From: Candidatus Sumerlaeota bacterium
GTDB taxonomy: Bacteria; Sumerlaeota; Sumerlaeia; SLMS01; JAHLLQ01
NCBI GenBank assembly: GCA_030156535.1
Contig: JASGMJ010000009.1
Location: 5,237 to 69,236 of the forward strand
Direction of reading: 5' to 3'
DNA: 64,000 nucleotides
Position numbers and translations under genes: made by a program. The notes under the pieces are model-generated. The model worked only from the letters and a program-made list of their open reading frames with translations, did not search any database and had not been told where the DNA came from. Shown in pieces: positions 933 through 26,403 of the stretch (positions are counted from its first letter, which is position 1; each line of letters starts with the position of its first letter).

Positions 933-989
933 GTGCGCCCGCAACGCTGGAAAGCAAATGCGTCGGGGAGCGGCTTCGGTTTGCTTCCG

Positions 990-2408: not shown

Positions 2409-2555
2409 CGTTGAGTTTATCCCGTCGTTTTGGTACAGCATTAAATAAAATAATGAATCTGGGGCAACCGAATTGTCGATTCTTCTCTGGCGCCCCGGCC
2501 GCCACCCCGGCACGAAAGCTCCGAATTCCTTTCCTTTTCCCCGGAGCTTTCCTCC
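2409..2555. promoter_or_regulatory. Divergent intergenic region containing an AT-rich stretch (ttaaataaaataatgaatc) in an otherwise GC-rich context.
   Basis: The divergent starts of the 990..2408(-) and 2556..3479(+) genes flank it, and it is locally AT-rich. Confidence 0.3.
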
Positions 2556-4462: not shown

Positions 4463-4567
4463 CACTATTTTATCTGCTTAAATTTAATGCCAAACTAAAT
4501 CCTTGCGCCCCTGCCCTCTCCCGTGCCAGCGAGAGGCATCCTTCATCTTCGCAACCGGGTTGATCCC

Positions 4568-5845: not shown

Positions 5846-6807
5846 CGGAGGGCCCCGTGCCAGCGCATCAGGCCGTTGCTCCACAGCCCGTTCCCGGGCG
5901 CCGCCGTGGTTCCCTGGCGCGCACCGAGCGTTTCTGGGGGCTCCTGCTCAGTTCCCCCTACATTCTTGGCCTGCTGTTCTTCGCCGCCGGTCCCATCCTG
6001 TTCTCCTGGATCATCGGGTTCTTTGAATGGGACAGCCTGACGCCGCCGCGCTTCGTTGCCCTGGCGAACTGGCAACGCCTCTTCACCGATCCGCTCTTTC
6101 ACAAGGCGCTCTTCAACACGCTCTATTTCGTCCTCGGCAGCGTCCCCCCCGGCGTCTTGCTCTCGCTGCTGCTGGCGATGGCGGTGAACCGCGGCATCAA
6201 GGGCATCACGATCTTCCGCACGATTTACTTCACCCCCGTTGTCACGTCCGTTGTGGCCGTTGCCCTTGTGTGGACGTGGATCTACGACACGAACGTCGGC
6301 ATCCTGAATCTGCTGATCGAGCGCACGTTCAAGCTCTTTGGCGCGCGTCCGCCCGAGCCCATCGCCTGGCTCAACGATCCCCGTTTCGCCATGCCCGCCA
6401 TCATCGCCATGAGCATCTGGAAGGGGCTCGGCTACAACATGGTGATCTTCCTGGCGGCACTGCAGGACGTTCCCACCCAGCTCTACGAAGCCGCCGAGCT
6501 CGATGGCGCCGGGCGCCTTGGCAAGTTCCGGCACGTCACGCTTCCCATGATTTCTCCTGTCACGTTCTTCGTTCTCGCGGTTTCCCTGATCGGCGCGTTC
6601 CAGGTCTTCGACCAGATTTACATCATGGCGAAGGATGGCCGCCCCGCCAACTCCACGCTGACGATTGTCTACCACCTGTACAACCACGCGTTCCGGTATC
6701 TGGAAATGGGCTATGCGAGCACCATTGGCGCGGCGCTGTTCCTGATGATCTTCGCGGTCACGCTCTTCCAGCTCTGGGCGCAGAAACGGTGGGTACACTA
6801 CCAATGA
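5842..6807 (+). CDS. Carbohydrate ABC transporter permease (MalF/UgpA-like)
   Basis: Multi-TM protein with the EAA-like loop EAAELDGAG.. and an ATGA overlap with the SBP gene. Confidence 0.85.
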   Translation: MTEGPVPAHQAVAPQPVPGRRRGSLARTERFWGLLLSSPYILGLLFFAAGPILFSWIIGFFEWDSLTPPRFVALANWQRLFTDPLFHKALFNTLYFVLGSVPPGVLLSLLLAMAVNRGIKGITIFRTIYFTPVVTSVVAVALVWTWIYDTNVGILNLLIERTFKLFGARPPEPIAWLNDPRFAMPAIIAMSIWKGLGYNMVIFLAALQDVPTQLYEAAELDGAGRLGKFRHVTLPMISPVTFFVLAVSLIGAFQVFDQIYIMAKDGRPANSTLTIVYHLYNHAFRYLEMGYASTIGAALFLMIFAVTLFQLWAQKRWVHYQ

Positions 6808-7649
6808 GCACCAGGCGCCTTTCTCCCCGTGCGGTTTCCGCGGCGGCGTTGCAGTACCTGCTGCTCGGCCTGCTGGCGTTCCTCATGGTCTTCCCCTTTC
6901 TGTGGATGGCGAGCACCTCGCTCAAGTCTTTCGGCGAGGCCTTCGCCTATCCGCCCACGCTGCTCCCGCGCGCCTGGCGCTGGAGCAACTACGGCGAAAT
7001 CTTCAACGCCATGCCGATGACGCGCTTCCTTCTCAACAGCTGCAAGATCACCGGCCTCACCGTGCTCGGTATGCTGCTCTCCTGCTCCATGGCCGCCTTT
7101 GCACTGGCGCGTCTTGAATTTCCCGGCAAGCGACTGCTGTTCGCCAGCACCCTCGCCACGCTCATGGTTCCGTACCAGGTCACGCTGATCCCCGTCTTCA
7201 TTCTGTTCCAGTATCTCGGCTGGAAGGACACGCACTACCCGCTGTGGGTTCCGGCGTTCTTCGGCGGCGCGTTTGGCGTTTTCCTTCTCCGCCAGTTTTT
7301 CATCGGCGTCCCCAAGGACCTCTATGAAGCCGCGCTCGTGGACGGCAGCACCCCCGGCGGCATCCTCTTCCGGATTTATCTCCCTCTCGCCAAGCCCGCC
7401 CTGACCACGCTCGGCGTCTTCACGTTCATGGCTTCCTGGAATGACCTGTTGAATCCGCTCATCTACATCGACACGCTGGAGAAAATGCCGCTGACGGCCG
7501 GGCTGAGTTTCCTCCAGACCCAGTATGGCAGCGACTGGCCCCTGATGATGGCGGGCGCCATGATCTCCATCCTCCCGATCCTCGCGATCTTCTTCGTGGC
7601 CCAGCGCGCCTTCATTCAAGGCATTGCCACCGCCGGGCTGAAAGGTTGA
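6804..7649 (+). CDS. Carbohydrate ABC transporter permease (MalG/UgpE-like)
   Basis: MSTRRLSPRAV..FPFLWM... and the EAA loop YEAALVDGSTP. It starts at the internal ATG 6804 of the long 6027 ORF and overlaps the previous stop by 4 nt. Confidence 0.85.
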   Translation: MSTRRLSPRAVSAAALQYLLLGLLAFLMVFPFLWMASTSLKSFGEAFAYPPTLLPRAWRWSNYGEIFNAMPMTRFLLNSCKITGLTVLGMLLSCSMAAFALARLEFPGKRLLFASTLATLMVPYQVTLIPVFILFQYLGWKDTHYPLWVPAFFGGAFGVFLLRQFFIGVPKDLYEAALVDGSTPGGILFRIYLPLAKPALTTLGVFTFMASWNDLLNPLIYIDTLEKMPLTAGLSFLQTQYGSDWPLMMAGAMISILPILAIFFVAQRAFIQGIATAGLKG

Positions 7650-7736
7650 GACAGAACAAGCGGGTTTGCCGCATTGTTTTCCGGGATCGTGAATCAATCC
7701 GGCTGACAACCGTGCCCCGCCCGTAGGAAAACAAAA

Positions 7737-9017
7737 GTGCGACACCCCTCCAGACGACCAGCCACTGAACCTTTGGAAACGGACCCCATGACTCCCGCAG
7801 CGAAAATTCCCACCCGCCCCGATCTCGTTGTCGTTCCCAACAGTTCCACGCCCGCCGATCGATCCATCGAGAAGCGCCGCCTGCGCAAGCACTCCGTCCT
7901 CAACGTCGTCCGCGCCCACGGCCCGGTCTCCCGCGCCGGGATTTCCAAAATTTCGAACTTCAACCTCCCCAGCGTCTCCGCTCTCGTCGATGAACTCGTG
8001 GAAGAGGGCCTCGTGCTCGAAGAGGAGGCCCAGCGCGTTCCCCGCGGCCGGCGCCCCATCCCCGTCCACTTGAACGAGAGCGCCGCATCGATCCTCGGCA
8101 TCGACATCGGCAAGAGTTCCACGATCGGGCTTCTTCTCAACCTCGGGGGCACGCTCATCACCCGCGTCGAGAAAAGAACCCCGTCGCTCTCCACGCCCAA
8201 GGCACACGAGGAATGGGTTGCGAAGATCGCCGCTCAGGTCTTTGCCGAGACTGGCGACAAGACTCCCCCCCTCGCCGGCATTGGCATCGGTCTTCCGGGG
8301 CTCATCGGCAAGTCCAGTTCAGGCACGGAAACCCACAACATTGCCACGCATCTGGCCACTTCCCTCGAAGCCATTTACGGCGTGTGCACCATTGTGGAAA
8401 ACGACGCGCGCATGATGGCGCTCGGTTGCATGCTCTTCGGCCAGGGGAAAGCTCTCTCCAGCTTCGCTGTCCTCAACATCGGCTTCGGTCTCGGCATGGG
8501 CCTCGTGCTCGACGGACGCCTCTTCCAGGGCACCCAGGGGTTCGGTGGCGAGATTGGGCACATCCCTCTCGGCGAGTCCGGCGTCCCCTGCTATTGCGGC
8601 AAGAGCGGCTGCCTGGAGAACATCGTTTCCGGTTCCGGCCTCGTTCGCCTGGCCAAGGCCAAGGGCCTTGCCGTCAGCGACGCCGCCGAAGTGGCCGAAC
8701 TTGCCCGCAAGGGCGACCGCAAGGCACTCGCGATCTTCCGCACTTTCTCCGAACACCTCGGCCGCACTGCCGCCGTCGTGATGAACCTCTACGATCCCGA
8801 GGCCGTCATCCTCAGTGGCCGCGTTTGCCGGGCAGGCGACCTGTTCATCGATGGGGCTCGCGCCGAACTCGAACGCCACGTCCTCGCTCCGATTGCCCGG
8901 CACAGCGAACTTCTCGTCAGCACCCTCGACGTCGACCTGGGTCCGATTGGTGCCGCCGCCGCTGTTCTCCACCGCATCTTTTTCTCCAGTCACGTCAGCA
9001 TCGACGAGGTTATCTGA
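7737..9017 (+). CDS. ROK-family transcriptional regulator / sugar kinase-like (NagC/XylR type)
   Basis: N-terminal wHTH (VLNVVRAHGPVSRAGISK), the ROK glycine-rich motifs LGIDIGKSS and GIGIGLPG, and a CxCGxxGC zinc motif (PCYCGKSGCLE). Confidence 0.8.
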   Translation: MRHPSRRPATEPLETDPMTPAAKIPTRPDLVVVPNSSTPADRSIEKRRLRKHSVLNVVRAHGPVSRAGISKISNFNLPSVSALVDELVEEGLVLEEEAQRVPRGRRPIPVHLNESAASILGIDIGKSSTIGLLLNLGGTLITRVEKRTPSLSTPKAHEEWVAKIAAQVFAETGDKTPPLAGIGIGLPGLIGKSSSGTETHNIATHLATSLEAIYGVCTIVENDARMMALGCMLFGQGKALSSFAVLNIGFGLGMGLVLDGRLFQGTQGFGGEIGHIPLGESGVPCYCGKSGCLENIVSGSGLVRLAKAKGLAVSDAAEVAELARKGDRKALAIFRTFSEHLGRTAAVVMNLYDPEAVILSGRVCRAGDLFIDGARAELERHVLAPIARHSELLVSTLDVDLGPIGAAAAVLHRIFFSSHVSIDEVI

Positions 9018-9143
9018 CCCGTTGCGGCCCCGGGCCGCGCCGGGGCGCCGATTTCGCCGTTGACAATCCCCCGGCCAGCCCCCCACACTCCGTTTATTAC
9101 AGGACTAAATTTAATACAAAAGCAACGAACCGGACAACGCCTC

Positions 9144-10241
9144 ATGCATCGCCTCGCCATTATCGGATTCGGAGACATGGGCAGCGCCCACGCTGCCGGC
9201 TTCAACGCCCTCCCCTCCTGCGAGATCGTCGCCACCGTCGAGCCTGACGCCGCACGCCTCGCCTATCGCGACGTCCCCTGGAAGAACGGCGCCCCTCCGA
9301 ACTTTGCCGACACGGCCTCCATGCTCCGCGCCATCAAGCCGGATGCCTGCGTCGTCGCCGTTCCCGACCTCCAGCACCGCGCGGTCTCCGAACTCGTTCT
9401 CGATGCCGGGTGCGACTTGTTCCTCGAAAAGCCCATCACCACCACGCTGCCCGACGCCGACGCCATTATCGCTCGTGCGCGCGAACGCGGGCGGCTTCTC
9501 CAGATCGGTCTCGTCTACCGCTACTCGAATCTTTACCGCCGCATGGCCGAGCGCGCCGCCGAGCCGGGCCATCCCGTCCGCCTCATGTGGTGCAAGGAGT
9601 TGCGCCAGTGTTTTCCCCAGCGCCCCTGGTTCTACTCGCAGCATGCAACAGGTGGCACGCTGGTGGAGAAGGACTGCCATCACTTCGATCTCTTCAACTG
9701 GATGATTGCCAGCCGCCCCGTCCGCGTCTTCGCAACGGGTGGCCAGCACGTGTGGAAGTCCGGCGCCGTCATTGACTGCAATTACTGCCCCGACGAACCC
9801 CGCGCCATCGAGGAGATCGACACCATCGATCACGCGCTCGTCACGATTGACTACGAGAACGGCGCGCGTGCCTGCCTGATCCTGTGCATGTACCTGCGTC
9901 CGGAGAACGTGATGCCCGAGGGGCTCGAAGTCGGCGCCATCGCCCTGAGTGGCAGGCAGATGATCGCGTATCGCGACGAGCGCCTTGGCGTTGGCGGCGT
10001 TGGCGATCCGCTGGCCTTCGAGCGGCTCGACATGTGGGCCGACAACCAGGGCTTCGGGCATATCGGCTGTCAGCAGCAGCGCATCGAGTTCCTCGAATGC
10101 CTGGAACAGCGCCGCGAGCCGTTTGCCAACGGCGAGGTCGGCCGCGATTCCCTTCTCGTCGCTCTCGCCGCCGAACGCTCCATCCGCGAAGAACGTCCCA
10201 TCGACCTCAAGGAGTTTGCCGCATGTCCGACCTGCGCATAA
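9144..10241 (+). CDS. Gfo/Idh/MocA-family NAD(P)-dependent oxidoreductase
   Basis: N-terminal Rossmann LAIIGFGDMGSAHA and an EKP motif (LFLEKPITTT). Confidence 0.8.
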   Translation: MHRLAIIGFGDMGSAHAAGFNALPSCEIVATVEPDAARLAYRDVPWKNGAPPNFADTASMLRAIKPDACVVAVPDLQHRAVSELVLDAGCDLFLEKPITTTLPDADAIIARARERGRLLQIGLVYRYSNLYRRMAERAAEPGHPVRLMWCKELRQCFPQRPWFYSQHATGGTLVEKDCHHFDLFNWMIASRPVRVFATGGQHVWKSGAVIDCNYCPDEPRAIEEIDTIDHALVTIDYENGARACLILCMYLRPENVMPEGLEVGAIALSGRQMIAYRDERLGVGGVGDPLAFERLDMWADNQGFGHIGCQQQRIEFLECLEQRREPFANGEVGRDSLLVALAAERSIREERPIDLKEFAACPTCA

Positions 10242-11323
10242 GCTCCACGGAAGCAGCGGCCGCGATTGAAACATCCGCTCCCGGGCGCATTTGCCTTTTC
10301 GGCGAGCACCAGGACTACCTTGGCCTGCCCGTGATTGCCGCCGGAATCGACCTGCGTGTTTCCATCGTGGCGCGTCCGCGCGCGGCCTCTCCCTTTCGTG
10401 TGGCCATGCCCGACATCCACAAGGTCGTGGAGTTCGACCCCAACAAGGAAAACACGTACTCCCACGACCGCGACTACCTCATTGCCGCCGCCAACGTTCT
10501 TCGCCGCGAAGGCGTCGAGTGGCCCTGCGGATACGACGTCGAAGTCACTAGCACGATTCCGATCAACAGCGGCGCCTCCAGTTCCTCCGCGCTCCAGGTG
10601 GCGTGGTGCGCGTTCCTGCTCGCTGCCGCCGGAGACGTCCGCGCAGCCGATCCCCGCACTGCCGCGCGCTATGCGCATCTTTCCGAGGTTGTGGAGTTCG
10701 GCTCGCCCGGCGGCATGATGGATCACTATTCGACGGCGCTCGGCGGAATCATCTGGCTCGATTGCGCCACGCACACGCCCGCGCCGCTCCCCGCCTGGGC
10801 ATCGGAGTACGTCCTCGTGGATTCCGGCATTCCCAAGGACACGAATGGCGTTCTCGGAAGCGTTCGCGCCCGCGCCGAGAGCATTGACGTCGATTTCCAT
10901 GCTCTCAACGGCGCCGAGGAATGGCCGGCCATCCATGACTCCCTTCCTCCCGATCGCCGGGGCGTCTTCCTCGCCAACGCCCGCAACAAGCAACTAACCC
11001 TGGAGGCGCGTGGCGTGATCGAGAACACCACGGATGCAGTACGCCTGGGCCGTCTCCTGTCCGAGCATCACGTGCAGCTCTCGCGCAATCTCGGTGTGTC
11101 TCTTCCTGCTATCGACGACCTTCTTGCCCGCGGCATTGCTGCGGGAGCACTCGGCGGAAAGATCAACGGTTCCGGCGGGGGAGGATCGCTTTTCCTCTTC
11201 TGTCCGGGGCGCTCGAATGAAATCGCTGCCCTGTATCAGGGCATGGGCCTGCGTGCCTTTGCCGTCGCTGTTTCAAGCGGCCTCGGACTTCTCATCGACG
11301 GAAAGGAAAGAGTCTGCTCATGA
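10223..11323 (+). CDS. GHMP-family sugar kinase (galactokinase/GalNAc-kinase/glucuronokinase-like)
   Basis: GHMP motif PINSGASSSSAL and a C-terminal GGKINGSGGGGS motif. It overlaps the oxidoreductase gene. Confidence 0.8.
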   Translation: MSDLRISSTEAAAAIETSAPGRICLFGEHQDYLGLPVIAAGIDLRVSIVARPRAASPFRVAMPDIHKVVEFDPNKENTYSHDRDYLIAAANVLRREGVEWPCGYDVEVTSTIPINSGASSSSALQVAWCAFLLAAAGDVRAADPRTAARYAHLSEVVEFGSPGGMMDHYSTALGGIIWLDCATHTPAPLPAWASEYVLVDSGIPKDTNGVLGSVRARAESIDVDFHALNGAEEWPAIHDSLPPDRRGVFLANARNKQLTLEARGVIENTTDAVRLGRLLSEHHVQLSRNLGVSLPAIDDLLARGIAAGALGGKINGSGGGGSLFLFCPGRSNEIAALYQGMGLRAFAVAVSSGLGLLIDGKERVCS

Positions 11324-12738
11324 ACAGGATTGCTCCCTCGCTTGCCACAGCGGCGCTTCTCGCGCTCCCCTCAATGATGATGGGCGGAGGCGTCTCCTGG
11401 TCGATGCAGGACACGCTCGACGCGTCTTCCTCTGCCCGGACGCTTGCCTACTTCCGCTCCGATGACTCCGTGCTTTGTCTGGAAGTCGAGGAGGATGTCT
11501 GGAGCGATCCCCGTGTTGCCGACGCAACGCGCCCCTACAAGTGCGTATTTGTTGACGTGAAGTCACCGGCTGCGGCCAGTACGGCGCTCAGGCAAGGCGT
11601 TTACGTCGTGCCCACGACGCTTGTTCTTGAAGGCGGAAGAGAAGTCGGGCGCCTGGAACGCCTTGCCGAACGCGAGGCCACGCTGCGCTTTCTCGAGAAA
11701 CCGGAGACGGTTCTCGCCCAGGCTCCCGCCTCTGCTCCCTTGCCCGCGCAGGGCACCCGGACGGGAAACTCCGAGCCAGTCTTCATGGAAGATTCCGCGG
11801 CTGATTACTCCGTCCCTGAATTGAACCTGATTGGGTTGGCTGCCGTTGAACAGGCTGGCCGCATCACCATTCAGATTCGCCTGCAATCGCCGCCCGATGC
11901 TGGCGCGTTGGGGCGCTACAATGTTTACGTGGACGCGGACGACAACGAGGAAACGGGGTTCGCCGATGCCAAGCATCGCGGCGCTGACTATTTGATTCAG
12001 GGGGCCAATTTCTACAAGTTCGGCGGCGCACAGCCCACCGAGTGGAACTGGCTGCCACCAAGGACGATCACCTTCAACCTCAGGGGGCAGGGAGTTTCCT
12101 ACTCCTTTGATCGTTCCATGATCGCCGCGCCTCCCGATTCGCAGATCAACATCTGGTCCTCCACGGTGGACGACTCCTGGAACCCGGTCGACTGGGCGCC
12201 GGACGATCGCCGCCTCACGCTCGGCAAGGGCATTTCCCTCGCCTCCACGCCCCAGCCTGCGGGTCCCGGCTCTCCCCCCGTCGCCGAGGCAACGGTCTTC
12301 AGTGACCCTGCCGGCGATGCCGATCAGCCACAGAACGACTTTGTCAGCGCGGCCGTCAACTACCAGGGCAACGACCTGCGCGTCGTTCTCGAATACAATG
12401 CGACGCCCAATCTCAACGGCCTGCACGTGATGATCGATGCCGATGCCGATCCCACGACAGGATTTGGGGACGGAGTCCGGGACGGCGCCGATTTTATGGT
12501 CGAGGGCGTTTCTCTCTATCGTCATCCGCCCTCGGCGGGAAAGAACTGGCAGTGGGAGAACCCCGTCGAGATTCCCACACGTGTCATCGGAAAGCGCGTC
12601 GAGATTCTCGTCCCCCGCTCTCGCGCGGGCATCGTTTACAACCAGCCGATTCGTCTCTGGTTCTCCACCACCGATGACGCTTGGGCGCCGTCCGACTGGT
12701 TGCCCGACAGCGGCGTCGTGAAGTTCCCCAAGCAGTAG
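11320..12738 (+). CDS. Hypothetical secreted protein with a thioredoxin-fold-like N-terminus (no CxxC) followed by an internal tandem duplication
   Basis: Signal-like N-terminus. Repeated segments GADYLIQGANFYKF..WNW and GADFMVEGVSLYRH..WQW, also ...IWSSTVDDSWNPVDWAPDD vs ...LWFSTTDDAWAPSDWLPD. ATGA coupling to the kinase gene. Confidence 0.55.
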   Translation: MNRIAPSLATAALLALPSMMMGGGVSWSMQDTLDASSSARTLAYFRSDDSVLCLEVEEDVWSDPRVADATRPYKCVFVDVKSPAAASTALRQGVYVVPTTLVLEGGREVGRLERLAEREATLRFLEKPETVLAQAPASAPLPAQGTRTGNSEPVFMEDSAADYSVPELNLIGLAAVEQAGRITIQIRLQSPPDAGALGRYNVYVDADDNEETGFADAKHRGADYLIQGANFYKFGGAQPTEWNWLPPRTITFNLRGQGVSYSFDRSMIAAPPDSQINIWSSTVDDSWNPVDWAPDDRRLTLGKGISLASTPQPAGPGSPPVAEATVFSDPAGDADQPQNDFVSAAVNYQGNDLRVVLEYNATPNLNGLHVMIDADADPTTGFGDGVRDGADFMVEGVSLYRHPPSAGKNWQWENPVEIPTRVIGKRVEILVPRSRAGIVYNQPIRLWFSTTDDAWAPSDWLPDSGVVKFPKQ

Positions 12739-12837
12739 ACGGCAGGATCCGCAGCTCGTTCTTCATCCCACCGTGAGCTTCCCGCTTAGCACGGGCACGC
12801 TGAACACGCGACGCAACCCAATGCTTCTGGACCGATT

Positions 12838-15800
12838 ATGACGCCCCGCCTTCCGCTCATCGCACTCCTGCTCACTTTCACTCCTCCAGTCCTTGCGGCG
12901 TTAACGCTCGATCCAGCGTCGCCGTCGTTCCTTCTTCAGGACGGCGAGCCACTCTCCCGTACGCCTCCACGGATTCTGCTGACCGAGTGGATTCCGACAG
13001 GAGCTTCCGCTGGCGGCGAGTCGGGTGGCGCCTCGCAAGCCCAGGGTGTCGGCTCGATCATCGAAGCGGAAACGCTCGACGCGCGCGTCCTTTCCTGGCG
13101 CGAGGATCCATGGCTAACTCAACCCACTGTGACATCCGATGGCGCGCCCCTGCACTATCATGCTGTCTTTCCACGCGATCTCGTTGTGGACTACGAATGG
13201 CAGCAGCACGGCGACCACCTTCGTGTCACCGGTGCGCTCCGCAATCTCGCCAACGATCCCGCGCGCCGCGAGGTCCCCGTCACGCTTGGCCTCGCTCTCT
13301 TCGTTGAGGACGCTAATCTGGAGTGGCTGCGCGACCATCACGTCAGCGAATCCGCCGCCAGCAACGACGAACGCATCTGGTCGGTTACGACGACGGCCGG
13401 TCCTCTCGGCGCGATGTCGCGCTACCTGCATGGCGCTGTTCGTGGGGACCGCGTGGCTCTCGCTGCAGCCTTTCCCCCCGATCAACCGCGCATCCAGCGC
13501 ATCCGCTGGGACGGCGTCCACCGGGCGCTTGTTATCGAGTTCGACGCCGTCGTTTCCGATGAGACCCTGAAGTTTCCGAACGAAGTCCCTTTCGAATTCT
13601 GGGTCTTCGATTTTCCCCGCGAGTTCGGTGCGCGTGGCGTCCTGCGTTCCTACTACGACCTCGCTCCCGATTCCTTCGCCGCGCGCAGCATGGACCAGGG
13701 GCAGTGGATGCCCTTCACCCAGATCGATCATGTCCAGCGGCCCGAGGACTTTCATTTTCGCTATCACGAGTACCATCCCAACGTTTCCGTGGCCTACAAC
13801 AACGCCAATGACATCGAGTCGCTGGTCTACTGCGAGCCGCCTGTGCAGTACGTGATTCTGCCGCAGGATGCCTTCGAGGACGCGGCACGTCTCCAGCGCA
13901 TCATCGACTCGAAGAGCGATGTCCAGGGCTCGCAGGTGCGTGGCTCGGCCGCATACAGGAGCGACGGCTCGCTCTTCGCCAACTACGTCGTGACCCCTTG
14001 GGCCACGGGCGCGCGCATACCCACCAACGGCGACCCGGAACTGCCGCGCACCGCCGGGAATCCGTACAACAGTTTCGATGCGAACTGGAAACCGTATCTC
14101 GATCTCTATCGCAACCGGGCTGCCGCGCCACCGCAGTCCTGGACCGGTGGTCTCTCCATGGACGGCGTCGTCGGGGCCAGTGGCAGGGCGTTGATGTTGT
14201 CCGCCGGGGGAAGTACGTCACAGCCAATCGAAACAAAATCAGGGACGGAGTCTCTCTCCGGCTCGGTTCGCGCCAAAGGCCGCGAAGGTGCGCACCTGCG
14301 CGTAGCCCTTTCCGGTCTGGAGGGTGACGTACGCGACTTCGCCCTCTCCGCCTCGTTCGCCGAGTATGCCTTCGAGCTTCCCGGCGGCACGGTGCTCCCC
14401 ACTCTTCTCCTTCAAGCCAGTGGTGCCGATGTCTGGATCGACGAAGTGCGTCTCGATGGCGCCTCGCTCGACAACGCCGGTTTCGAGTCGACGACCGCCG
14501 ATCCCGAACAAGTGACCGGCTTGTATCTCGACAGCTTCGAGGGGTGGGATTCCAAGGACATCAACTTCCGCCGCGAGCATTTTGCCACATCGGATTTCCC
14601 GCTGACGTTCGAAGCCACGACCGGCACCACGGGCCAGGTCATCATGATGGGCAATTTCGAACTCGCCGCGGAAGCGCGCCGCCGTTTGCACGAGCGCGGC
14701 GATTTGCTTATGGCCAACACGGCTCTCTATCAATGGGCGTGGTCCGCCCACTACCTTGACGTTCTCGGCATCGAAACGAATTGGGGAACGGGCGAACGAC
14801 TCAGTCCGCCGGACATCGGCATCATGGACTACATTCGCGCGCTCTGCTATCAGAAGCCCTACTGCTATCTGCAGAACGTGGAGTTCGACAAGTTCCGCGG
14901 CGCGAAAGTCGATCAGTACTTCGCACGCTGCCTCCACTACGGATTCTGGCCCGGGTTCTTCAGCCACAACGCGGCGGAGGCCCCGTACTGGGAGAATCCC
15001 GATCTCTACAACTCCGACCGCGCCCTCTTTATCCGCTTCATGCGCCCGCAGGCCGCCGCGACACGCGCGGGATGGGAACCCATCACGCTGGCCGCCGTTG
15101 ACGATGACGAGCTTCTCGTCGAGCGCTGGGGTGGTGCTCCCTATCGCGGCGAGATCCTCGCGCCGGACACCTTCTTCCTCACCGTTTACAATCCCACGGA
15201 TCGACTTCGCCAAGGCAGTCTGACCCTTGATTCGCGCCTCACAGGCGGGCGGCGCTATCTTGCCATCGACGCGCTTGGCGGCAGCCGGGCCACAACCGAT
15301 TCCAGCGGCAACGTCACGCTTGCGCTCGCTCCTCTCGACGTGACGTTGATTCAGTTCGTCGCACGTGACGACGCGGGAACGGAAACAACTCTCGCGGCCG
15401 CGCAGCAGGAACTCCTCGCTCTCGCCGCCAAGTGGCAGCGCCACGGCATGATCGATGCAGAGGCCGTCCAGCAACTCGCCCGTCTTCAGAACACAGAGGC
15501 ACTCGGCGACCGTCTTGGCATCGTCACCTCCTGGCGCACCGGGCATCGCTCGCAACTCGAACCGCTCTATCAGTTCGAATTCGACCGTGCCTTCTCCACA
15601 TGGCGCCTGCTCCTTGCTGCGCGCGACGAGGCGGCATCGGGTCAGTTGTTCGATCCACAAGTGCCTTCGCTCGTGACGCCCGGCGAAGACGCCATCCTTC
15701 GTGTCAGCGAAGCTTTTGCCGATCGTGATCTGATCGCCAGCGCTGAGTTCGCCGGCACTTCCTCCTCGTATCCGCTCACCGACGGCGTTGCCACGATTCC

Positions 15801-16662
15801 CATTCCCGCGTCACTTCCCATTGGCGAGAAAGTGCGCTTCTCCATTCAGCCCCGCGACGCCCTTGCTCCCTCTCCGCATTTCGAGTCACACGCCGAAGTG
15901 CGTCCGGCACTCGGACTCCTTGCGGTTCCGGCATCCCTGACGGCGGGCGATCAGGTTCCGCTTGGCTTTGCCGTTCGTAACAATCTGGCAAGGCCGCAGG
16001 CGGGAACGCTTCGCCTTGTTCTTCCGCCCGAGTGCGGCGCCGTCGCCCCGATGCCTCTTGAACTCTCGGCGGGCGAGGAGCGCTCGATCCTGATTCCCCT
16101 GTCCATCGAGCAACGCCCTGCCGATCTGGATGCCGTGCGCACGGTTCGTATTGAGTGGCACCGCCGCGATTCCGGCGATCTCATTACGCAATCGCTCCCG
16201 CTCACAATTCTCGCGCGCGGCGCCAGCCTTCTGCGCGGGCATGGTATTACGGCGCATGTCGATTCCGCCTACTTCGGCTACGACACGCGTCCCCTGACGG
16301 ATGGCGTCACGGACACCCGCAACGTTGATTGGGTCGATGCCGCCTGGGCCAGCGAGGAAGCCCTCGTACCGCACTGGGTCGAGTTTCGTTTCGCGGAGCC
16401 GCTTCGCATCTCCGAGGTCAAGATCTGGTGGGCGCTCGACAACGGCGTCTACCACACATCCGCGCACCTCTTGATTCAGGGCACCCGGGATGGAGAGACG
16501 TGGCAGACGCTCGTGACGCACACCGATCCGACTCCGTCCCCGGTTTCCACGTATGCGCTCGATGCCACGCCGTTGCGCGGCTTGCGCCTTCTCCAGCCTG
16601 CGGGTGGTGGTGCTCCCACGCGTCCTGGCATCCTCTGGCTCGGCGAGGTGGAGGCGCGATGA
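12838..16662 (+). CDS. Large (1274 aa) secreted hypothetical protein with a C-terminal F5/8-type-C (discoidin / CBM32-like) domain. Putative glycan-binding or glycan-degrading.
   Basis: Signal peptide MTPRLPLIALLLTFTPPVLAAL. C-terminus WVEFRFAEPLRISEVKIWWALDNG...LIQGTRDGETWQTL is typical of discoidin domains. Confidence 0.6.
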   Translation: MTPRLPLIALLLTFTPPVLAALTLDPASPSFLLQDGEPLSRTPPRILLTEWIPTGASAGGESGGASQAQGVGSIIEAETLDARVLSWREDPWLTQPTVTSDGAPLHYHAVFPRDLVVDYEWQQHGDHLRVTGALRNLANDPARREVPVTLGLALFVEDANLEWLRDHHVSESAASNDERIWSVTTTAGPLGAMSRYLHGAVRGDRVALAAAFPPDQPRIQRIRWDGVHRALVIEFDAVVSDETLKFPNEVPFEFWVFDFPREFGARGVLRSYYDLAPDSFAARSMDQGQWMPFTQIDHVQRPEDFHFRYHEYHPNVSVAYNNANDIESLVYCEPPVQYVILPQDAFEDAARLQRIIDSKSDVQGSQVRGSAAYRSDGSLFANYVVTPWATGARIPTNGDPELPRTAGNPYNSFDANWKPYLDLYRNRAAAPPQSWTGGLSMDGVVGASGRALMLSAGGSTSQPIETKSGTESLSGSVRAKGREGAHLRVALSGLEGDVRDFALSASFAEYAFELPGGTVLPTLLLQASGADVWIDEVRLDGASLDNAGFESTTADPEQVTGLYLDSFEGWDSKDINFRREHFATSDFPLTFEATTGTTGQVIMMGNFELAAEARRRLHERGDLLMANTALYQWAWSAHYLDVLGIETNWGTGERLSPPDIGIMDYIRALCYQKPYCYLQNVEFDKFRGAKVDQYFARCLHYGFWPGFFSHNAAEAPYWENPDLYNSDRALFIRFMRPQAAATRAGWEPITLAAVDDDELLVERWGGAPYRGEILAPDTFFLTVYNPTDRLRQGSLTLDSRLTGGRRYLAIDALGGSRATTDSSGNVTLALAPLDVTLIQFVARDDAGTETTLAAAQQELLALAAKWQRHGMIDAEAVQQLARLQNTEALGDRLGIVTSWRTGHRSQLEPLYQFEFDRAFSTWRLLLAARDEAASGQLFDPQVPSLVTPGEDAILRVSEAFADRDLIASAEFAGTSSSYPLTDGVATIPIPASLPIGEKVRFSIQPRDALAPSPHFESHAEVRPALGLLAVPASLTAGDQVPLGFAVRNNLARPQAGTLRLVLPPECGAVAPMPLELSAGEERSILIPLSIEQRPADLDAVRTVRIEWHRRDSGDLITQSLPLTILARGASLLRGHGITAHVDSAYFGYDTRPLTDGVTDTRNVDWVDAAWASEEALVPHWVEFRFAEPLRISEVKIWWALDNGVYHTSAHLLIQGTRDGETWQTLVTHTDPTPSPVSTYALDATPLRGLRLLQPAGGGAPTRPGILWLGEVEAR

Positions 16663-17702
16663 AGAGCGGCACCGAAGTTCTTCCCGTTCAGGCGTCCCTT
16701 GCGCAGGAGGACGTCCAGACTGCCTTGCAGCGTGCCCGTGACGCCGGTGCTTCCCTGGCCGAATGCCTCGGGATTCTGCAACGCTGGTCCGAGGCCGTTG
16801 GGTACTTCGCGCATCTCGGCGAGCCGAACGAGTTCCTCGTCTTTCCCGACGCGTCGCTTGGCCTCGACCTTCGTTTGCAAATCAACTATTCGCGTCTGGC
16901 GTACAAGGCGCCCGAGGGCCGCCGCATCGGATGCCCCCTGTGCTTTGAGAACATCGGCACACCGGGCAAGGAGCTGCTGCGCGTCTTCGAGTTCAATCTC
17001 GCGGGCGTTCCGTACTTCTCGCACCTCACGCCCTTCCCGCTTCATTCCGGCCACTTCGTCCTGAACGCACGCACGCACGAGCCCATGCGCATCGGCGAGC
17101 CTGCGCTGCGCGAAGCCGCCGCCTTTCTCGCTGAGGCTCCCGGCTGGCTCCTTGCCTCCAACAGTGATGTCGAGTGGGCCGGCGCGTCCGTCCTGAGTCA
17201 TCACCACTGCCAACTTTTCCGCGAGCTTCGCCTACCCATCGAGGACGCCGCCGTTCGTTCTCCAGGCCAAGTGGGTGACGTTGCCTGCGACCTTCTTTGC
17301 TGGCCGGGTCCCGTCTATCGTTTGTCGGGACCAGAGGAAGCGACGCTCGACGCCGCGGCGCGCCTGATTGCGCTCTGGAAAGCGCGCGACCCGGGGCGCT
17401 GCACGTGCAACTATCTCATGCGCCGGACGGACAGCAGCGGGCTCGTTTTGCATCTCTTCATGCGGCATCCCGACTGGCGCACGCCCGAGCACCTGCGTTC
17501 CATCAAAAGTGAGGGCGTTGGCATCATCGAGGTCGCCGGCGAGGTCATCGTTCCGCCTCTTGCCGGCAAGACACGCGCCGAGAACCGTGAGTTCTTCGAG
17601 GCCGAAGGCCTGCGCGTCATCCACGGCATCATCGGCGGCAACGCGCCGCTCGACGAGCGACTCGACTGGGATTTCTACGCCGCTTTTCCATCTCTTCTTT
17701 GA
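16659..17702 (+). CDS. GalT-branch HIT-superfamily nucleotidyltransferase/phosphorylase-like protein (HxHxQ motif)
   Basis: The SHHHCQLF motif fits HxHxQ (GalT / GDP-L-galactose phosphorylase / Apa branch). The upstream CPLC pair resembles the GalT zinc site. ATGA overlap with the preceding gene. Confidence 0.45.
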   Translation: MKSGTEVLPVQASLAQEDVQTALQRARDAGASLAECLGILQRWSEAVGYFAHLGEPNEFLVFPDASLGLDLRLQINYSRLAYKAPEGRRIGCPLCFENIGTPGKELLRVFEFNLAGVPYFSHLTPFPLHSGHFVLNARTHEPMRIGEPALREAAAFLAEAPGWLLASNSDVEWAGASVLSHHHCQLFRELRLPIEDAAVRSPGQVGDVACDLLCWPGPVYRLSGPEEATLDAAARLIALWKARDPGRCTCNYLMRRTDSSGLVLHLFMRHPDWRTPEHLRSIKSEGVGIIEVAGEVIVPPLAGKTRAENREFFEAEGLRVIHGIIGGNAPLDERLDWDFYAAFPSLL

Positions 17703-17719
17703 GAAAGTCGTCCCCCAAC

Positions 17720-17750
17720 AAAAAAGCCCGGAGACATCGTCCCCGGGCCT
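17720..17750 (-). terminator. Rho-independent terminator (GCCCGG-loop-CCGGGC followed by T7 on the minus strand) between convergent genes
   Basis: aaaaaaGCCCGGagacatcgtccCCGGGC. Read on the minus strand this is stem-loop + TTTTTT, immediately downstream of the 17781..18584(-) stop. Confidence 0.5.
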
Positions 17751-17780
17751 TCTGACATTCCTCGTACTGACGAACCCGCC

Positions 17781-18584
17781 TCAGTAATTCATTCCCCGGT
17801 TCGCGTAGTACTGCTTCACCTCGACGTTGGCCATGAAGACCAGCGTCAGGATGCCCGCCGTCATCGTGATAATGTTGCAGTCCAGGATCGTGATAATCAT
17901 CATGACTGTGACCCATTTGACAGGAGCACCGGGCGGATTAGCCAGCATTTTTGCCCCCACAATAATAGCGCCGACTGCCGCCACCAACTCTACAATCCAA
18001 AACACCCACGTGCACATCGCACAAGGTAGCATAACGGCCATGCCCGAAAGGGTGAGCGTGGCAACAATCGGAACCCAAATCAGACTAAAAATTCCGGGAA
18101 TCAGGTAGAGCAGAGCCATCGCCATGATGAGACCCGGCTTCTGATCACCGCCTCCCAGCGCGGTTCCTCCGCTGGTGGGAGGCACCGTGAAGCCGCCAGA
18201 GCCCTGCTGAGTGGGCGGCGGAGGAGGCGGAGGCGTTGGGTAGGCCGAGGCACTCGGCGCGGCCGGGGGAGTTGGATAGGAAGGTTGTGGTGGAGGGGGA
18301 GGAACTGGTGGTGCTGGCGGCGGAGGAGGAGGAGCGGCAAACCCGCTCCCGCCAGTGCCTGAAGGGGGCGGTGGCGGTGGTGGTGGAGGGGGAGGCGGAG
18401 GCGGCGAAGCCCAACTGCTCTTTGCCGGAGCCGAGTCCTTCGGGATGGGGAACTGACTGTCGCTTGCCAGATTTGTCCGCTCGGGATCGTCATTATAGCC
18501 CGAAGACGCTTGCTCCTCGGGCGGCGTCGAGGGAAGGGGGGGCGGTTGCCCGCCGGGGTCTTGGGAAGGATCGTGCGATGTCAT
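17781..18584 (-). CDS. Proline-rich membrane protein (long PPPPP tracts N-terminal, ~4-TM hydrophobic C-terminal domain)
   Basis: SPPPPPPPPPPPPPPSG...APPPPPPAPPVPPPPPQP, then TM segments LIPGIFSLIWVPIVATL, VFWIVELVAAVGAIIVG, VMMIITILDCNIITMTAGILTLVF. Confidence 0.6.
   Translation of the reverse strand: MTSHDPSQDPGGQPPPLPSTPPEEQASSGYNDDPERTNLASDSQFPIPKDSAPAKSSWASPPPPPPPPPPPPPPSGTGGSGFAAPPPPPPAPPVPPPPPQPSYPTPPAAPSASAYPTPPPPPPPTQQGSGGFTVPPTSGGTALGGGDQKPGLIMAMALLYLIPGIFSLIWVPIVATLTLSGMAVMLPCAMCTWVFWIVELVAAVGAIIVGAKMLANPPGAPVKWVTVMMIITILDCNIITMTAGILTLVFMANVEVKQYYANRGMNY
18280..18420. repeat. Low-complexity CCN/GGN (proline-codon) tract inside the proline-rich gene
   Basis: Runs of ggcgg/ggagg on the plus strand (ggcggcggaggaggaggagcggc...ggtggcggtggtggtggaggggg). 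Confidence 0.6.
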
Positions 18585-18727
18585 CGGTCGGCTCCGGAGT
18601 GGGAGTTGGAGTGCCCCCTGCCGGAATCGGGCATCGTCCTCGCTCTGGTCAGCGGCAGGGCATCGGCCTTGGTGAATTCCGATCCAACGTGCCGCTTACT
18701 GATGGAGCAACGAAATAAGGAGCATTC

Positions 18728-23205: not shown

Positions 23206-23372
23206 ACTCGTCTGGCTCCCTCTTCAGAGCGTTGCCTGGTCTCACATCATGCCCCCGCACACAAGGCGCGAGGCATTGCCTGCCAACGGTGCCGCACTCT
23301 CTCGAATTTCCGGCACGAGCGCAAACGATCTTCTCTTGCCTGGCGGGGGAGAGGGAACGGCTGCCCGCCGCA

Positions 23373-24476: not shown

Positions 24477-24642
24477 AGGGGGGCTGCTCCCAGGTTATTC
24501 ACAGGTTTCTCTCGCAAACTCCGGAACACCCCGGATTCACCTCTTCGCCCACGCAATTGTCAATCGGAACCGGGGTGTGCGTGCATGCCTGCCCATCGTT
24601 GTTGGAACCGGCATGAAGGTTGGGCTTTCAAGTCATATGAAT

Positions 24643-25170: not shown

Positions 25171-25197
25171 GATCCCACTCCGTCAATAGGGCTGCGC

Positions 25198-25746: not shown

Positions 25747-25785
25747 GGCAGACTCCGCAGGAAAGCAACCTCTTCAGTTGTCACG

Positions 25786-26244: not shown

Positions 26245-26403
26245 ACTTTGGCCGACTCCTATTGTCGTGCCTCTTCCCTCACCCCCGCGGGGTGGTCAAC
26301 CCATCTTGCCCGTCCGGATTTGGCGGGTGATTTGGGCAGATGCCCTGTTGTTGATCCTCTTGGCACTGACATCGCTGTGCACCATGCTACCTTGAACGCG
26401 GGA

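Follow-up and report, generated by a model that had tools for sequence, protein, structure and literature searches.

A conserved candidate polysaccharide-scavenging locus with a short class II-like GalT in an uncultured Sumerlaeota bacterium

The DNA analysed here, hereafter the window, is a stretch of 64,000 nucleotides from a metagenome-assembled genome (MAG) of Candidatus Sumerlaeota, and all positions are counted from its first letter. Five genes are read in one direction at 9144-17702 and encode, in order, a Gfo/Idh/MocA protein, a GHMP kinase, a 472-aa protein, a 1274-aa protein, and a 347-aa protein. The kinase gene overlaps the preceding Gfo/Idh/MocA gene by 19 nt, and ATGA stop/start overlaps were found at 11320, where the start codon of the 472-aa gene overlaps the kinase stop, and at 16659; the sequence coordinates bear out the five genes, their order, and both ATGA overlaps as given in a preliminary description of this DNA. 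The functional unit is wider than first stated, at 990-17702, because that description overlooked an epimerase gene at 2556-3479, and it also takes in a candidate DUF4874/DUF4832 hydrolase, this GalE-like epimerase, and an ABC importer. A ROK regulator, a sugar ABC importer, and a DUF4832 gene had been placed immediately upstream of the operon; all three are present, but the DUF4832 gene is not immediately adjacent, lying about 6.7 kb away in divergent orientation. The features of the unit, with the evidence used to assign them, are as follows.

990-2408, minus strand: secreted DUF4874+DUF4832 protein, 472 aa, candidate extracellular glycoside hydrolase (Pfam)
2556-3479, plus strand: NAD-dependent GalE-like UDP-hexose 4-epimerase, 307 aa, third Leloir-like enzyme (Pfam, NCBIfam)
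3476-4462, plus strand: GNAT acetyltransferase-domain protein, 328 aa (Pfam Acetyltransf_1, E=5e-12)
4568-7649, plus strand: sugar ABC importer, comprising a lipoprotein solute-binding protein (SBP; 4568-5845) and permeases (5842-6807 and 6804-7649) (Pfam SBP_bac_1, E=1e-43)
7737-9017, plus strand: ROK-family transcriptional regulator, NagC/Mlc-like (Pfam ROK, E=2e-52, and a MarR-like HTH)
9144-10241, plus strand: cytoplasmic Gfo/Idh/MocA protein, 365 aa, candidate NAD+-dependent glycosidase related to GH188 (Pfam, PDB matches, residues)
10223-11323, plus strand: GHMP anomeric sugar kinase with galactokinase signature, 366 aa (Pfam, PDB match)
11320-12738, plus strand: exported, fast-evolving accessory protein, 472 aa (AF2 model)
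12838-16662, plus strand: secreted multidomain α-glycosidase-like protein, 1274 aa (structure model, Pfam)
16659-17702, plus strand: short class II-like GalT, 347 aa, candidate UDP-sugar:N-acetylhexosamine-1-phosphate uridylyltransferase (NCBIfam, tblastn, residues)

Besides the complete BY40 genome of Ca. Sumerlaea chitinivorans, seven further MAGs keep the gene order (at least eight Sumerlaeota genomes in all), at protein identities of 27-70%. This is far beyond chance, and the neighbourhood is thereby conserved in relatives, as the reading in the preliminary description required. The 4-nt overlaps recur in BY40 and in two other loci (L001 and L002). Across the Sumerlaeota loci the ABC importer is conserved at 60-81% identity, and the orthologues of the exported 472-aa protein, only 27-38% identical, always occupy the same position. 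The epimerase is 62% identical to the gene in the BY40 locus, from which the GNAT protein is absent, and a DUF4874/DUF4832 homologue sits in the matching divergent position in BY40, with others close to the block in L002 and, as a weaker match (24% identity), in L013. We lean, by a narrow balance, towards reading the locus as a conserved sugar- or polysaccharide-scavenging cluster of an uncultured Sumerlaeota bacterium.

By sequence, the 347-aa protein is related to class II GalT, though distantly and in shortened form. It matched the NCBIfam class II GalT model TIGR01239 (IPR000766) at E=3.7e-19; the score was 69.2 bits, well under the cutoff of 650, and the alignment was confined to residues 92-242 (profile positions 171-330). 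In a tblastn search the protein picked up genes annotated as class II galT at 1e-9 to 1e-12. Of the profiles named in the preliminary description, GHMP_kinases, GFO_IDH_MocA, and F5/8 type C were all matched within the operon, but the Pfam GalT models gave no match to the 347-aa protein in the Pfam search, and DUF4922 reached only E=0.012. The motif H181-H-H183-C-Q185 aligns with that of the Collinsella and Bacillus class II GalTs, and its H181, H183, and Q185 are invariant among 33 family members; this HxHxQ, a modified HIT motif with a nucleophilic second His, served as one criterion for class II GalT, and the earlier placement of the protein in the GalT/HIT branch stands. A predicted Zn site is formed by C92 (nearly invariant in the family), C95, H132, and H181, which fall in the columns of BlGalT2 C195, C198, H245, and H286. 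Towards the C-terminus, the invariant K283, E285, and E291 and the nearly invariant I290 line up with IKKENIGLIEVMG in true class II GalTs. The auxiliary-domain sugar ligands of BlGalT2 are K412, E414, and E420, with I419 next to C6 (preprint), and I290 is the equivalent of I419, which packs against C6 of GalNAc. The invariant residues are common to true class II GalTs and map onto BlGalT2, whereas the roughly 100 N-terminal and 60 C-terminal residues of a full-length class II GalT, which has an N-terminal helical domain and about 490-515 aa, are missing.

A HIT-like protein of this kind could also be an NDP-sugar phosphorylase, like GDP-L-galactose or ADP-glucose phosphorylase, that is degradative or regulates a sugar-nucleotide pool. 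DUF4922, which is the HIT-like domain found in GDP-L-galactose phosphorylases, is matched by all 33 family members at E≤1, at best 5e-12, and the nearest structural relatives of BlGalT2 are Ap4A and ADP-Glc phosphorylases (preprint). We nevertheless regard a phosphorylase as improbable, given that the class II GalT match is far stronger (E=3.7e-19 vs 0.012), that every family member keeps the K-x-E…E motif by which class II GalTs bind the sugar, and that the constant partners, an anomeric kinase and a 4-epimerase, are what a transferase needs.

The kinase matched Pfam GalKase_gal_bdg (PF10509) at 41 bits (cutoff 23.1) and PF00288 at 43 bits, with both GHMP_kinases_N and GHMP_kinases_C recovered. 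It carries GRICLFGEHQDY and a GGMMDH segment, and shows both of the marks used to recognise a galactokinase, namely the galactose-binding signature GRxxLxGEHxDY and the GHMP ATP-binding motif; its best PDB match is the archaeal galactokinase 1s4e (1.7e-16). The kinase scored below all NCBIfam galactokinase cutoffs (best model 89 bits vs 443; TIGR00131 71 vs 227). In two other loci (L012 and L037) the kinase gene lies directly upstream of the GalT-like gene, and the earlier proposal of a Leloir-like activation module made up of the kinase and the HxHxQ GalT-branch enzyme was correct. The third enzyme, the epimerase, matched Pfam Epimerase at E=4e-61 and NCBIfam GalE at E=9e-52, the latter under the cutoff, and the ROK regulator matched NCBIfam NagC at E=5e-46, again under the cutoff.

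These enzymes could serve an ordinary galactose Leloir pathway acting on galactan-derived galactose or galacto-oligosaccharides, with a divergent galactokinase and with the 347-aa protein as a Gal-1-P uridylyltransferase working alongside GalE. Consistent with this are the galactokinase signature and the galactokinases that are the best PDB matches of the kinase, the class II galT genes in galK-galT(-galE) operons of Bacillus and Collinsella, the galactose-binding-like F5/8 type C domain in the 1274-aa protein, and an SBP that weakly resembles the galacto-oligosaccharide binder GanS. BlGalT2 prefers GalNAc-1P and also accepts Gal-1P (preprint), an acceptance that favours plain galactose and counts against GalNAc; the position of the kinase and the GalT-like protein, both far under their curated family cutoffs, also speaks against GalNAc. 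We consider the galactose pathway rather unlikely, however, as the kinase is far under the galactokinase equivalog cutoffs, the regulator is closest to NagC, galactosaminidases are the top fold matches of the 1274-aa protein, and homologues in the 347-aa GalT clade pair with NahK (N-acetylhexosamine 1-kinase), NagA, GH109, and GH123 and not with canonical GalK.

The GalT-like homologues in question occur in Sumerlaeota, Spirochaetota, Gammaproteobacteria, KSB1, Calditrichota, Fibrobacterota, and Bacteroidota. In seven gammaproteobacterial loci the homologue is accompanied by a NahK homologue, an epimerase, NagA, and an MFS transporter; NahK-like kinases lie beside it in Spirochaetes; and in Oceanispirochaeta a GHMP kinase and NagA are nearby. 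The NahK homologue of the gammaproteobacterial loci matched PDB 4ocu at E=4e-84, and the epimerase of the window is 45-50% identical to those in the NahK-GalT-like clusters of Gammaproteobacteria and Spirochaetes. A Persicobacter polysaccharide utilization locus (PUL) combines a true GH109 α-N-acetylgalactosaminidase (E=1.7e-135) with a NahK-like kinase, and in the Sumerlaeales locus L012 the orthologous kinase-GalT pair is immediately preceded by a GH123 gene. The preliminary description had left the sugar unnamed; from the genomic partners of the homologues (NahK, NagA, a GalE-like epimerase, GH109, and GH123), we infer that it is an N-acetylhexosamine, most likely GalNAc. Because homologues in other phyla adjoin NahK, a GalE-like epimerase, NagA, and GH109 or GH123, the probable substrate of the 347-aa protein is an N-acetylhexosamine-1-phosphate, most likely GalNAc-1-P. 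Genes for NagA, NagB, and phosphoacetylglucosamine mutase were found neither in the locus nor among the other scanned ORFs of the window, which counts against the GalNAc reading.

The 365-aa Gfo/Idh/MocA protein, which had been taken for a pathway dehydrogenase, matches Pfam GFO_IDH_MocA and has as its best PDB sequence matches the GH188 sulfoquinovosidases 8zn9, 8qc3, and 8qc2 (8e-21 to 1e-18). The next match is at 2.8e-12, and the GH188 matches are eight orders of magnitude better than those to dehydrogenases. In the phmmer alignment, K96, Y125, E175, and H179 correspond to ArSqgA K107, Y136, E189, and H193, and H306 was assigned to ArSqgA H321 by its spacing from the aligned C-terminal segment; these five GH188 catalytic residues are invariant in three Sumerlaeota orthologues. 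Most of the region that aligns with GH188 proteins falls within residues 3-253, and the C-terminal region gave only a 4.6-bit second segment in phmmer, the family itself being defined by a C-terminal-domain HMM. No signal peptide was found. Since the protein most closely resembles the GH188 NAD+-dependent glycosidases and keeps their catalytic residues, it more likely acts as a glycosidase in the cytoplasm than as a pathway dehydrogenase.

R154 and R/K160 align with the sulfonate ligands R166 and K172, and L170, a backbone ligand, is replaced by P158. Because the protein retains the two C6-sulfonate-binding basic residues of GH188, an anionic sugar in its -1 subsite is suggested; retention of these residues is a poor fit with neutral GalNAc. 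Under such a reading a C6-anionic sugar (sulfoquinovose, a 6-sulfo sugar, or a uronic acid) would be freed by the GH188-like enzyme and converted through its 1-phosphate to a UDP-sugar. GHMP anomeric kinases for uronic acids exist, and the SDR (the epimerase) has a weak, partial match to UDP-sulfoquinovose synthase (1.5e-10). The SDR matches GalE far better (9e-52) and resembles the NahK-cluster epimerases, however; the GalT-like protein keeps I290, the counterpart of the BlGalT2 residue packed against GalNAc C6; the GH188 similarity lies mainly in the first 250 residues; and no sulfoquinovose catabolic (sulfoglycolysis or sulfolysis) gene was found in the locus in Pfam and NCBIfam scans. We accordingly hold an anionic sugar to be very unlikely and retain an N-acetylhexosamine as the preferred substrate.

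The 1274-aa protein had been described as of unknown fold, but it models confidently as an α-glycosidase-type TIM barrel resembling clan GH-D, with carbohydrate-binding additions. From N- to C-terminus, the model comprises a β-sandwich, a (β/α)8 barrel split by an inserted β-sandwich of roughly 100 residues, a further β-sandwich, a helical bundle, two β-sandwiches, and an F5/8 type C domain (Pfam, residues 1152-1250). α-Galactosaminidases were its top structural matches in both fold searches, at an identity of at most 12% among the fold matches; no Pfam GH domain was found at E≤0.01 and no PDB sequence match, and the core of the protein defines a large family for which Pfam offers no model. 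The exported 472-aa protein, for which no above-threshold Pfam match was found, gave a weak AF2 model (pLDDT 62) with a thioredoxin-like domain lacking CxxC, which matches DsbDγ and thioredoxins, and two β-sandwich repeats; the top match of the model is the glucodextranase 1ug9. The divergently encoded protein at 990-2408 has a visible N-terminal hydrophobic signal and matches DUF4832 (E=6e-58, 196.5 bits) and DUF4874 (E=4e-37, 127.6 bits), both above the gathering threshold. In S. intermedius, experiments have shown a DUF4832 protein to be an active hydrolase that dissolves Pel (PMC12345266).

Polysaccharide biosynthesis operons encode this DUF4832 protein (SIR_1591) as well as PelA, Sph3, and Ega3, which are structural neighbours of the 1274-aa protein, and 15 kb downstream the window contains a cluster for EPS biosynthesis. 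The locus might accordingly be biosynthetic or remodelling, making UDP-GalNAc for the bacterium's own exopolysaccharide while the secreted hydrolases trim the polymer in the manner of PelA, Sph3, and Ega3. We judge this quite improbable: no glycosyltransferase, synthase, or exporter was found within 990-17702, an SBP-type ABC importer and a ROK repressor-type regulator are hallmarks of uptake, and unrelated genes on both strands separate the EPS cluster from the locus.

On balance, scavenging is somewhat the likelier function of 990-17702, with secreted cutting enzymes and a cytoplasmic kinase/uridylyltransferase/epimerase route, all of whose substrates and activities we infer. The DUF4874/DUF4832 protein and the clan-GH-D-like 1274-aa protein, perhaps assisted by the exported 472-aa protein, would cut a glycan outside the cell in which α-linked GalNAc/GalN is abundant, for instance a biofilm polymer resembling Pel or galactosaminogalactan, or a glycoconjugate related to these. 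Oligosaccharides would enter through the ABC importer and be cleaved in the cytoplasm by the Gfo/Idh/MocA enzyme through NAD+-dependent oxidation-elimination (the mechanism of GH188, GH109, and GH4). The GHMP kinase would phosphorylate the freed N-acetylhexosamine, which has the galacto configuration and is most likely GalNAc, at C1; the short class II-like GalT would then swap UMP (GalNAc-1-P + UDP-Glc(NAc) → UDP-GalNAc + Glc(NAc)-1-P), and the GalE-like epimerase would convert UDP-GalNAc to UDP-GlcNAc, feeding amino-sugar metabolism. The ROK protein would regulate the locus, and the GNAT protein possibly re-acetylates GalN, a role that is purely conjectural.

The claim that this combination is not a described PUL type was overstated, because loci joining an ABC importer and secreted glycosidases to a cytoplasmic kinase, GalT, and GalE are known, among them the bifidobacterial GNB/LNB cluster, and Persicobacter has an analogous GH109-NahK-DUF4922 PUL; the pathway type is already known, and it is the enzyme lineages building it that are undescribed. 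By analogy, the Sumerlaeota locus resembles the GNB/LNB pathway (lnpABCD with the GL-BP ABC transporter) in its SBP-equipped ABC importer, its presumed anomeric N-acetylhexosamine kinase step, its class II-type GalT (a preference for GalNAc-1P being known for the bifidobacterial enzyme), and its UDP-Glc/UDP-GlcNAc 4-epimerase. It differs in that no GH112 GNB/LNB phosphorylase was found within 990-17702, cytoplasmic cleavage being assigned instead to the proposed NAD+-dependent Gfo/Idh/MocA enzyme; in that the kinase is of GHMP type and not an APH-type NahK, none of which lies within 990-17702 and which partners the GalT-like gene only in other phyla; in its minimal 347-aa transferase without the N-terminal helical domain and C-terminal extension; and in the large secreted glycosidase-like proteins embedded in the operon.

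With class II GalT, the 347-aa protein shares the CxxC…H…H zinc site, HxHxQ, the SNxD…G.S.L segment, and the K-x-E…E ligands with adjacent Ile, but it is about 25% identical, some 150 residues shorter, and at 69 bits against a cutoff of 650. Class II GalT has been described as confined to Bacillota and Actinomycetota (preprint), whereas homologues of the 347-aa protein span the groups listed above. The Gfo/Idh/MocA protein has in common with GH188 SqgA and GH109 the fold and the Lys, Tyr, Glu-x3-His, and C-terminal His, these being its closest PDB sequence relatives, and GH109 occupies the equivalent position in the Persicobacter PUL. GH109 enzymes carry a Tat/Sec signal, whereas the Gfo/Idh/MocA protein is predicted to be cytoplasmic and has none; it departs from GH188 in the missing sulfoglycolysis genes around it, in similarity that is strong over the first 250 residues only, and in the L170-to-Pro change. 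Lastly, the 1274-aa protein shares with clan GH-D-type enzymes (GH36 FpGalNase, GH31, GH129 NagBb, GH101 EngBF) and GH114/135/166/191 a predicted architecture of N-terminal β-sandwich, (β/α)8 barrel, β-sandwich, and C-terminal carbohydrate-binding modules; its similarity to clan GH-D (GH27/31/36/66/101/129) and GH114/135/166/191 is at the fold level only, and the barrel insert and the helical bundle after the barrel set it apart from the clan GH-D-type enzymes.

The preliminary description placed five co-directional genes between 9144 and 17702, and all five proved to be real and correctly located, as were the ATGA overlaps that it reported between the kinase stop and the start of the 472-aa gene and between the stop of the 1274-aa gene and the start of the 347-aa gene. 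Pfam recovered the GFO_IDH_MocA and GHMP domains, a galactokinase signature, and an F5/8 type C domain at the C terminus of the 1274-aa protein. The Gfo/Idh/MocA (hereafter Gfo) and kinase genes share 19 nt, and a 99-nt gap lies between the genes for the 472-aa and 1274-aa proteins.

Genes of the locus and neighboring genes, in window coordinates
990-2408, - strand (divergent), upstream: secreted DUF4874/DUF4832 protein
2556-3479, upstream: GalE-like epimerase
upstream of the Gfo gene: ROK regulator
upstream: sugar ABC importer with lipoprotein solute-binding protein
upstream: GNAT protein
9144-10241, + strand: Gfo/Idh/MocA gene, Pfam GFO_IDH_MocA
10223-11323, + strand: GHMP kinase gene, Pfam GHMP domains and galactokinase signature
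11320-12738, + strand: 472-aa protein gene, without Pfam domain
12838-16662, + strand: 1274-aa protein gene, Pfam F5/8 type C domain at the C terminus
16659-17702, + strand: 347-aa protein gene, class II GalT-like
20797-23205, - strand: 7TM receptor with HD hydrolase domain, unrelated neighbor
23373-24476, - strand: PhoH, unrelated neighbor
27285-29984: TgpA-type transglutaminase, unrelated neighbor
within 20797-29984: cNMP-binding protein and DJ-1/PfpI protein, unrelated neighbors

The neighborhood is conserved: in Ca. Sumerlaea chitinivorans BY40, whose genome is complete, the same arrangement recurs (DUF4832 protein, epimerase, ABC importer, Gfo, kinase, a 484-aa protein, a 1272-aa protein, and the GalT-like protein), and seven further MAGs have the block from Gfo to GalT in common with it. 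Given this conservation, the upstream partner genes, and the unrelated content of the genes 3' of 17702, the functional unit is 990-17702. A consensus scan of 900-18700 was uninformative on transcription units, since it found 13 terminators against 13.8 expected from shuffling, not above expectation, and placed no sigma-70-type site 5' of the operon. Between the convergent genes that meet at the 3' end, a hairpin at 17720-17748 (GCCCGGAGAC-ATC-GTCCCCGGGC, with A6 before it) reads as an intrinsic terminator with its T-tract on the minus strand and is absent from the output of that scan; the gene that converges on the operon (17781-18584, - strand) encodes a membrane protein that has long PPPPP runs in an extremely proline-rich N-terminal half. 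In three other Sumerlaeota loci, the gene for a small prepilin-type N_methyl protein separates the Gfo gene from the regulator or importer (L001, 1980-2576; L002, 1592-2203; L054, 5721-6305); in the window, ROK and Gfo lie 126 nt apart, and no N_methyl gene was called between them. The GC content of the window is high (~63%), and, as is typical of such DNA, many positions carry long ORFs that are antisense or extended, e.g., 14239-15660 (-), 3107-4465 (-), and 990-3476 (-); in the last of these (828 aa), only the part that begins with the Met at 2408 is real.

Farther downstream, an EPS/O-antigen-type polysaccharide biosynthesis cluster spans 32583-63591 and contains a Wza-like exporter, a GT4 initiating transferase, a Wzc-like tyrosine kinase, a Wzy-like polymerase, a UDP-sugar dehydrogenase, an epimerase, MurA- and MurB-like proteins, a Wzx flippase, GT1 transferases, WecG, and a UDP-GlcNAc 2-epimerase. 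Also inside it, at 57096-59246 (+), lies a 716-aa fusion of a zinc-type ADH module (ADH_N/ADH_zinc_N) with a Gfo/Idh/MocA module. GC dips to 0.56-0.57 at 36-38 kb and 50-54 kb.

The 347-aa protein is 100% identical to one from a Candidatus Sumerlaeota MAG, and its assignment to the GalT/HIT family held. Pfam GalT models gave no match and DUF4922 reached E = 0.012 at best, while the class II GalT models of NCBIfam matched at E = 3.7e-19, over the core only and far under the family cutoff. With the 347-aa protein as the tblastn query against plasmids, the annotated class II galT genes of Bacillus, Enterococcus, and Collinsella were recovered at 1e-9 to 1e-12 and ~25% identity. We set aside the non-GalT reading that the missing Pfam match might suggest, as the NCBIfam class II models, tblastn, and the active-site residues agree. 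Single-sequence and profile searches of the family against PDB sequences returned noise only (dynein, E ~0.05), so an alignment with annotated class II GalTs was used in place of structure-based confirmation. C95, H132, SNSD..WAGAS.L.H.H.Q, and K283-x-E285..G288..E291 are invariant and C92 is nearly invariant among the 33 members of the family, and all of these residues fall in invariant columns shared with true class II GalTs. In BlGalT2, the first class II GalT structure (2026 preprint), zinc is bound by C195, C198, H245, and H286, the nucleophile is H288 within the H286/H288/Q290 HIT motif, K412, E414, E420, and Q290 of that motif are ligands of the GalNAc hydroxyls, and I419 adjoins C6 of GalNAc; its Km is 50-fold lower for GalNAc-1P than for Gal-1P (2026 preprint). 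The residues shared with class II GalTs and BlGalT2 thus make the 347-aa protein a candidate enzyme with a class II GalT mode of action, and a reading of this HIT enzyme as a phosphorylase appears improbable. It does not qualify as a regular class II GalT: with 347 aa against ~500, it has neither the N-terminal helical domain nor the C-terminal extension. The phylogenetically widespread clade of short class II-like GalTs to which it belongs is a new element. In an Oceanispirochaeta MAG (L045, 8999-11056), a 685-aa ORF joins a regulator of the GntR-HTH/periplasmic-binding-protein type to a GalT-like (DUF4922) domain; this ORF may represent a genuine regulator-enzyme fusion or an artifact of mechanical ORF calling that merged two genes.

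The three best PDB sequence matches of the Gfo protein are the GH188 NAD+-dependent sulfoquinovosidases 8zn9, 8qc3, and 8qc2 (8e-21 to 1e-18), followed by a dehydrogenase at 2.8e-12. The Gfo protein keeps the catalytic Lys, Tyr, Glu-x3-His, and C-terminal His of the GH188 enzyme ArSqgA and has no signal peptide; on these grounds it is probably a cytoplasmic NAD+-dependent glycosidase that would cleave imported oligosaccharides. An inositol-type dehydrogenase feeding the pathway was rejected: the TIGR04380 score of 95 falls short of the 355 cutoff, and similarity to GH188 proteins is much greater. R154 and R/K160 preserve the pair of basic residues that bind the C6 sulfonate in GH188, which suggests that the −1 subsite of the Gfo protein accommodates an anionic group. 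Beyond these two residues the locus contains no pointers to sulfoquinovose (SQ), and a GH188-like enzyme in a non-sulfoquinovose context is a new element. We regard a pathway for a C6-anionic sugar as highly improbable. Its Leloir-type form, with SQ as the extreme, would combine GH188-type release, 1-phosphorylation by the GHMP kinase, UDP-sugar formation by the short GalT, and conversion by the GalE-like SDR at 2556-3479 into an undescribed sulfolytic pathway, in which the SDR step could be, e.g., UDP-SQ to UDP-glucose plus sulfite, the SQD1 reaction reversed; drawn solely from the conserved sulfonate-binding Arg and Lys/Arg, this form is extremely improbable.

The partners of GalT-like genes in other genomes bear on the sugar. 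Seven gammaproteobacterial loci (Thiotrichales, Francisellaceae) have the order NagA, MFS transporter, GalE-like epimerase, APH-family kinase, GalT-like, and the kinase is a clear homologue of N-acetylhexosamine 1-kinase (NahK; E = 4e-84 to 4ocu). Spirochaete loci pair the GalT-like gene with a NahK-type kinase, an epimerase, or both, and in Oceanispirochaeta it is followed by a GHMP kinase with a galactokinase signature and a NagA-like amidohydrolase. In a SusD-type PUL on a Persicobacter plasmid, a true GH109 α-N-acetylgalactosaminidase (E = 1.7e-135 to 2ixa), which fills the oligosaccharide-cleaving role proposed for the Gfo protein, precedes a second Gfo/Idh/MocA protein, a NahK-like kinase, a GH2 enzyme, and a DUF4922/GalT-like protein. 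Two further Sumerlaeota loci (L012 and L037) have an orthologous GHMP kinase directly 5' of the GalT-like gene, and in L012 a GH123 gene (β-N-acetylgalactosaminidase family) stands immediately 5' of that pair. The distant homologues L003 (Deferribacteres/KSB1) and P0047 have no sugar-related neighbors and are therefore uninformative. The informative contexts point to an N-acetylhexosamine, most likely GalNAc, as the sugar of the pathway, and they identify the kinase-GalT pair as the system's core; the two exported proteins are an insertion into this core in one Sumerlaeota lineage. A plain galactose Leloir route is unlikely, and a biosynthetic or remodeling locus quite improbable; these two readings, the phosphorylase, and the C6-anionic pathway each fit the comparative data less well than GalNAc salvage.

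The 1274-aa protein, formerly described as of unknown fold, yielded a confident model (pLDDT 87.8, pTM 0.85) with a predicted order, from N to C terminus, of a β-sandwich, a (β/α)8 barrel split by a β-sandwich insert, a β-sandwich, a helical bundle, two β-sandwiches, and the F5/8 type C domain. Its carboxylates D565, D641, E646, and E762 (protein numbering) do not vary within the family. Because the full-length alignment exceeded 1200 positions, the family was searched with a profile of the barrel core only, which retrieved 1419 cluster representatives across metagenomes, 461 of them at E ≤ 1e-30; Pfam recognized only carbohydrate-binding and other accessory domains (e.g., SLH, Ig-like, GDSL lipase) in them. 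Judged by the predicted fold, this sizeable, uncharacterized family is glycosidase-like and constitutes a further new element. One member (P0115, 882 aa) adjoins a GatZ/KbaZ-like gene followed by a DUF6785 membrane protein (L052, 943-2223; L053, 77-1357); GatZ/KbaZ belongs to the tagatose-bisphosphate aldolase system of galactitol and GalNAc catabolism. The 472-aa protein evolves quickly (27-38% identity between orthologues) and contains no Pfam domain, and its model, a thioredoxin-like domain without CxxC plus two β-sandwich repeats, is weak (pLDDT 62, from a 3-row alignment), so its fold matches are tentative. Its NCBI name, "primary-amine oxidase" (P0090, 11320-12738), found no backing in Pfam or the fold search and probably reflects misannotation. 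In experiments, a DUF4832 protein from Streptococcus intermedius dissolved Pel, which is a polymer of GalNAc/GalN (PMC12345266).

The best-supported model, which we hold with moderate confidence and for which we infer all substrate assignments, is a six-step GalNAc salvage: a GalNAc/GalN-rich glycan would be cut extracellularly, the oligosaccharides taken up by the ABC importer and cleaved in the cytoplasm in an NAD+-dependent manner, and the released sugar phosphorylated at C1 by the GHMP kinase, converted to its UDP form through UMP exchange by the short GalT, and 4-epimerized. If the model is true, the uncultured Sumerlaeota would gain a capacity for GalNAc salvage in their metabolic picture, and the rare class II GalT would reach past the two phyla now thought to be its limit by way of a compact ~350-aa clade in at least seven other phyla, today mostly annotated as hypothetical or DUF4922. 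Likewise, the >1400 protein clusters of the 1274-aa core family, without a Pfam model, would gain a testable function in the extracellular cleavage of GalNAc/GalN-rich glycans as a candidate new glycoside hydrolase family, with practical interest as enzymes that degrade Pel-like or galactosaminogalactan-like biofilm matrices.

The preliminary statement that the locus is not a described PUL type was too strong, as the proposed route runs along the same lines as the bifidobacterial GNB/LNB pathway and is built from other components: it has no GH112 phosphorylase, a GHMP kinase replaces NahK, and the GalT is minimal. Should the model be true, non-orthologous parts appear to have been swapped inside one pathway logic, with cleavage by GH109 or a GH188-like enzyme and phosphorylation by NahK or a GHMP kinase, in both cases together with a short GalT and GalE.
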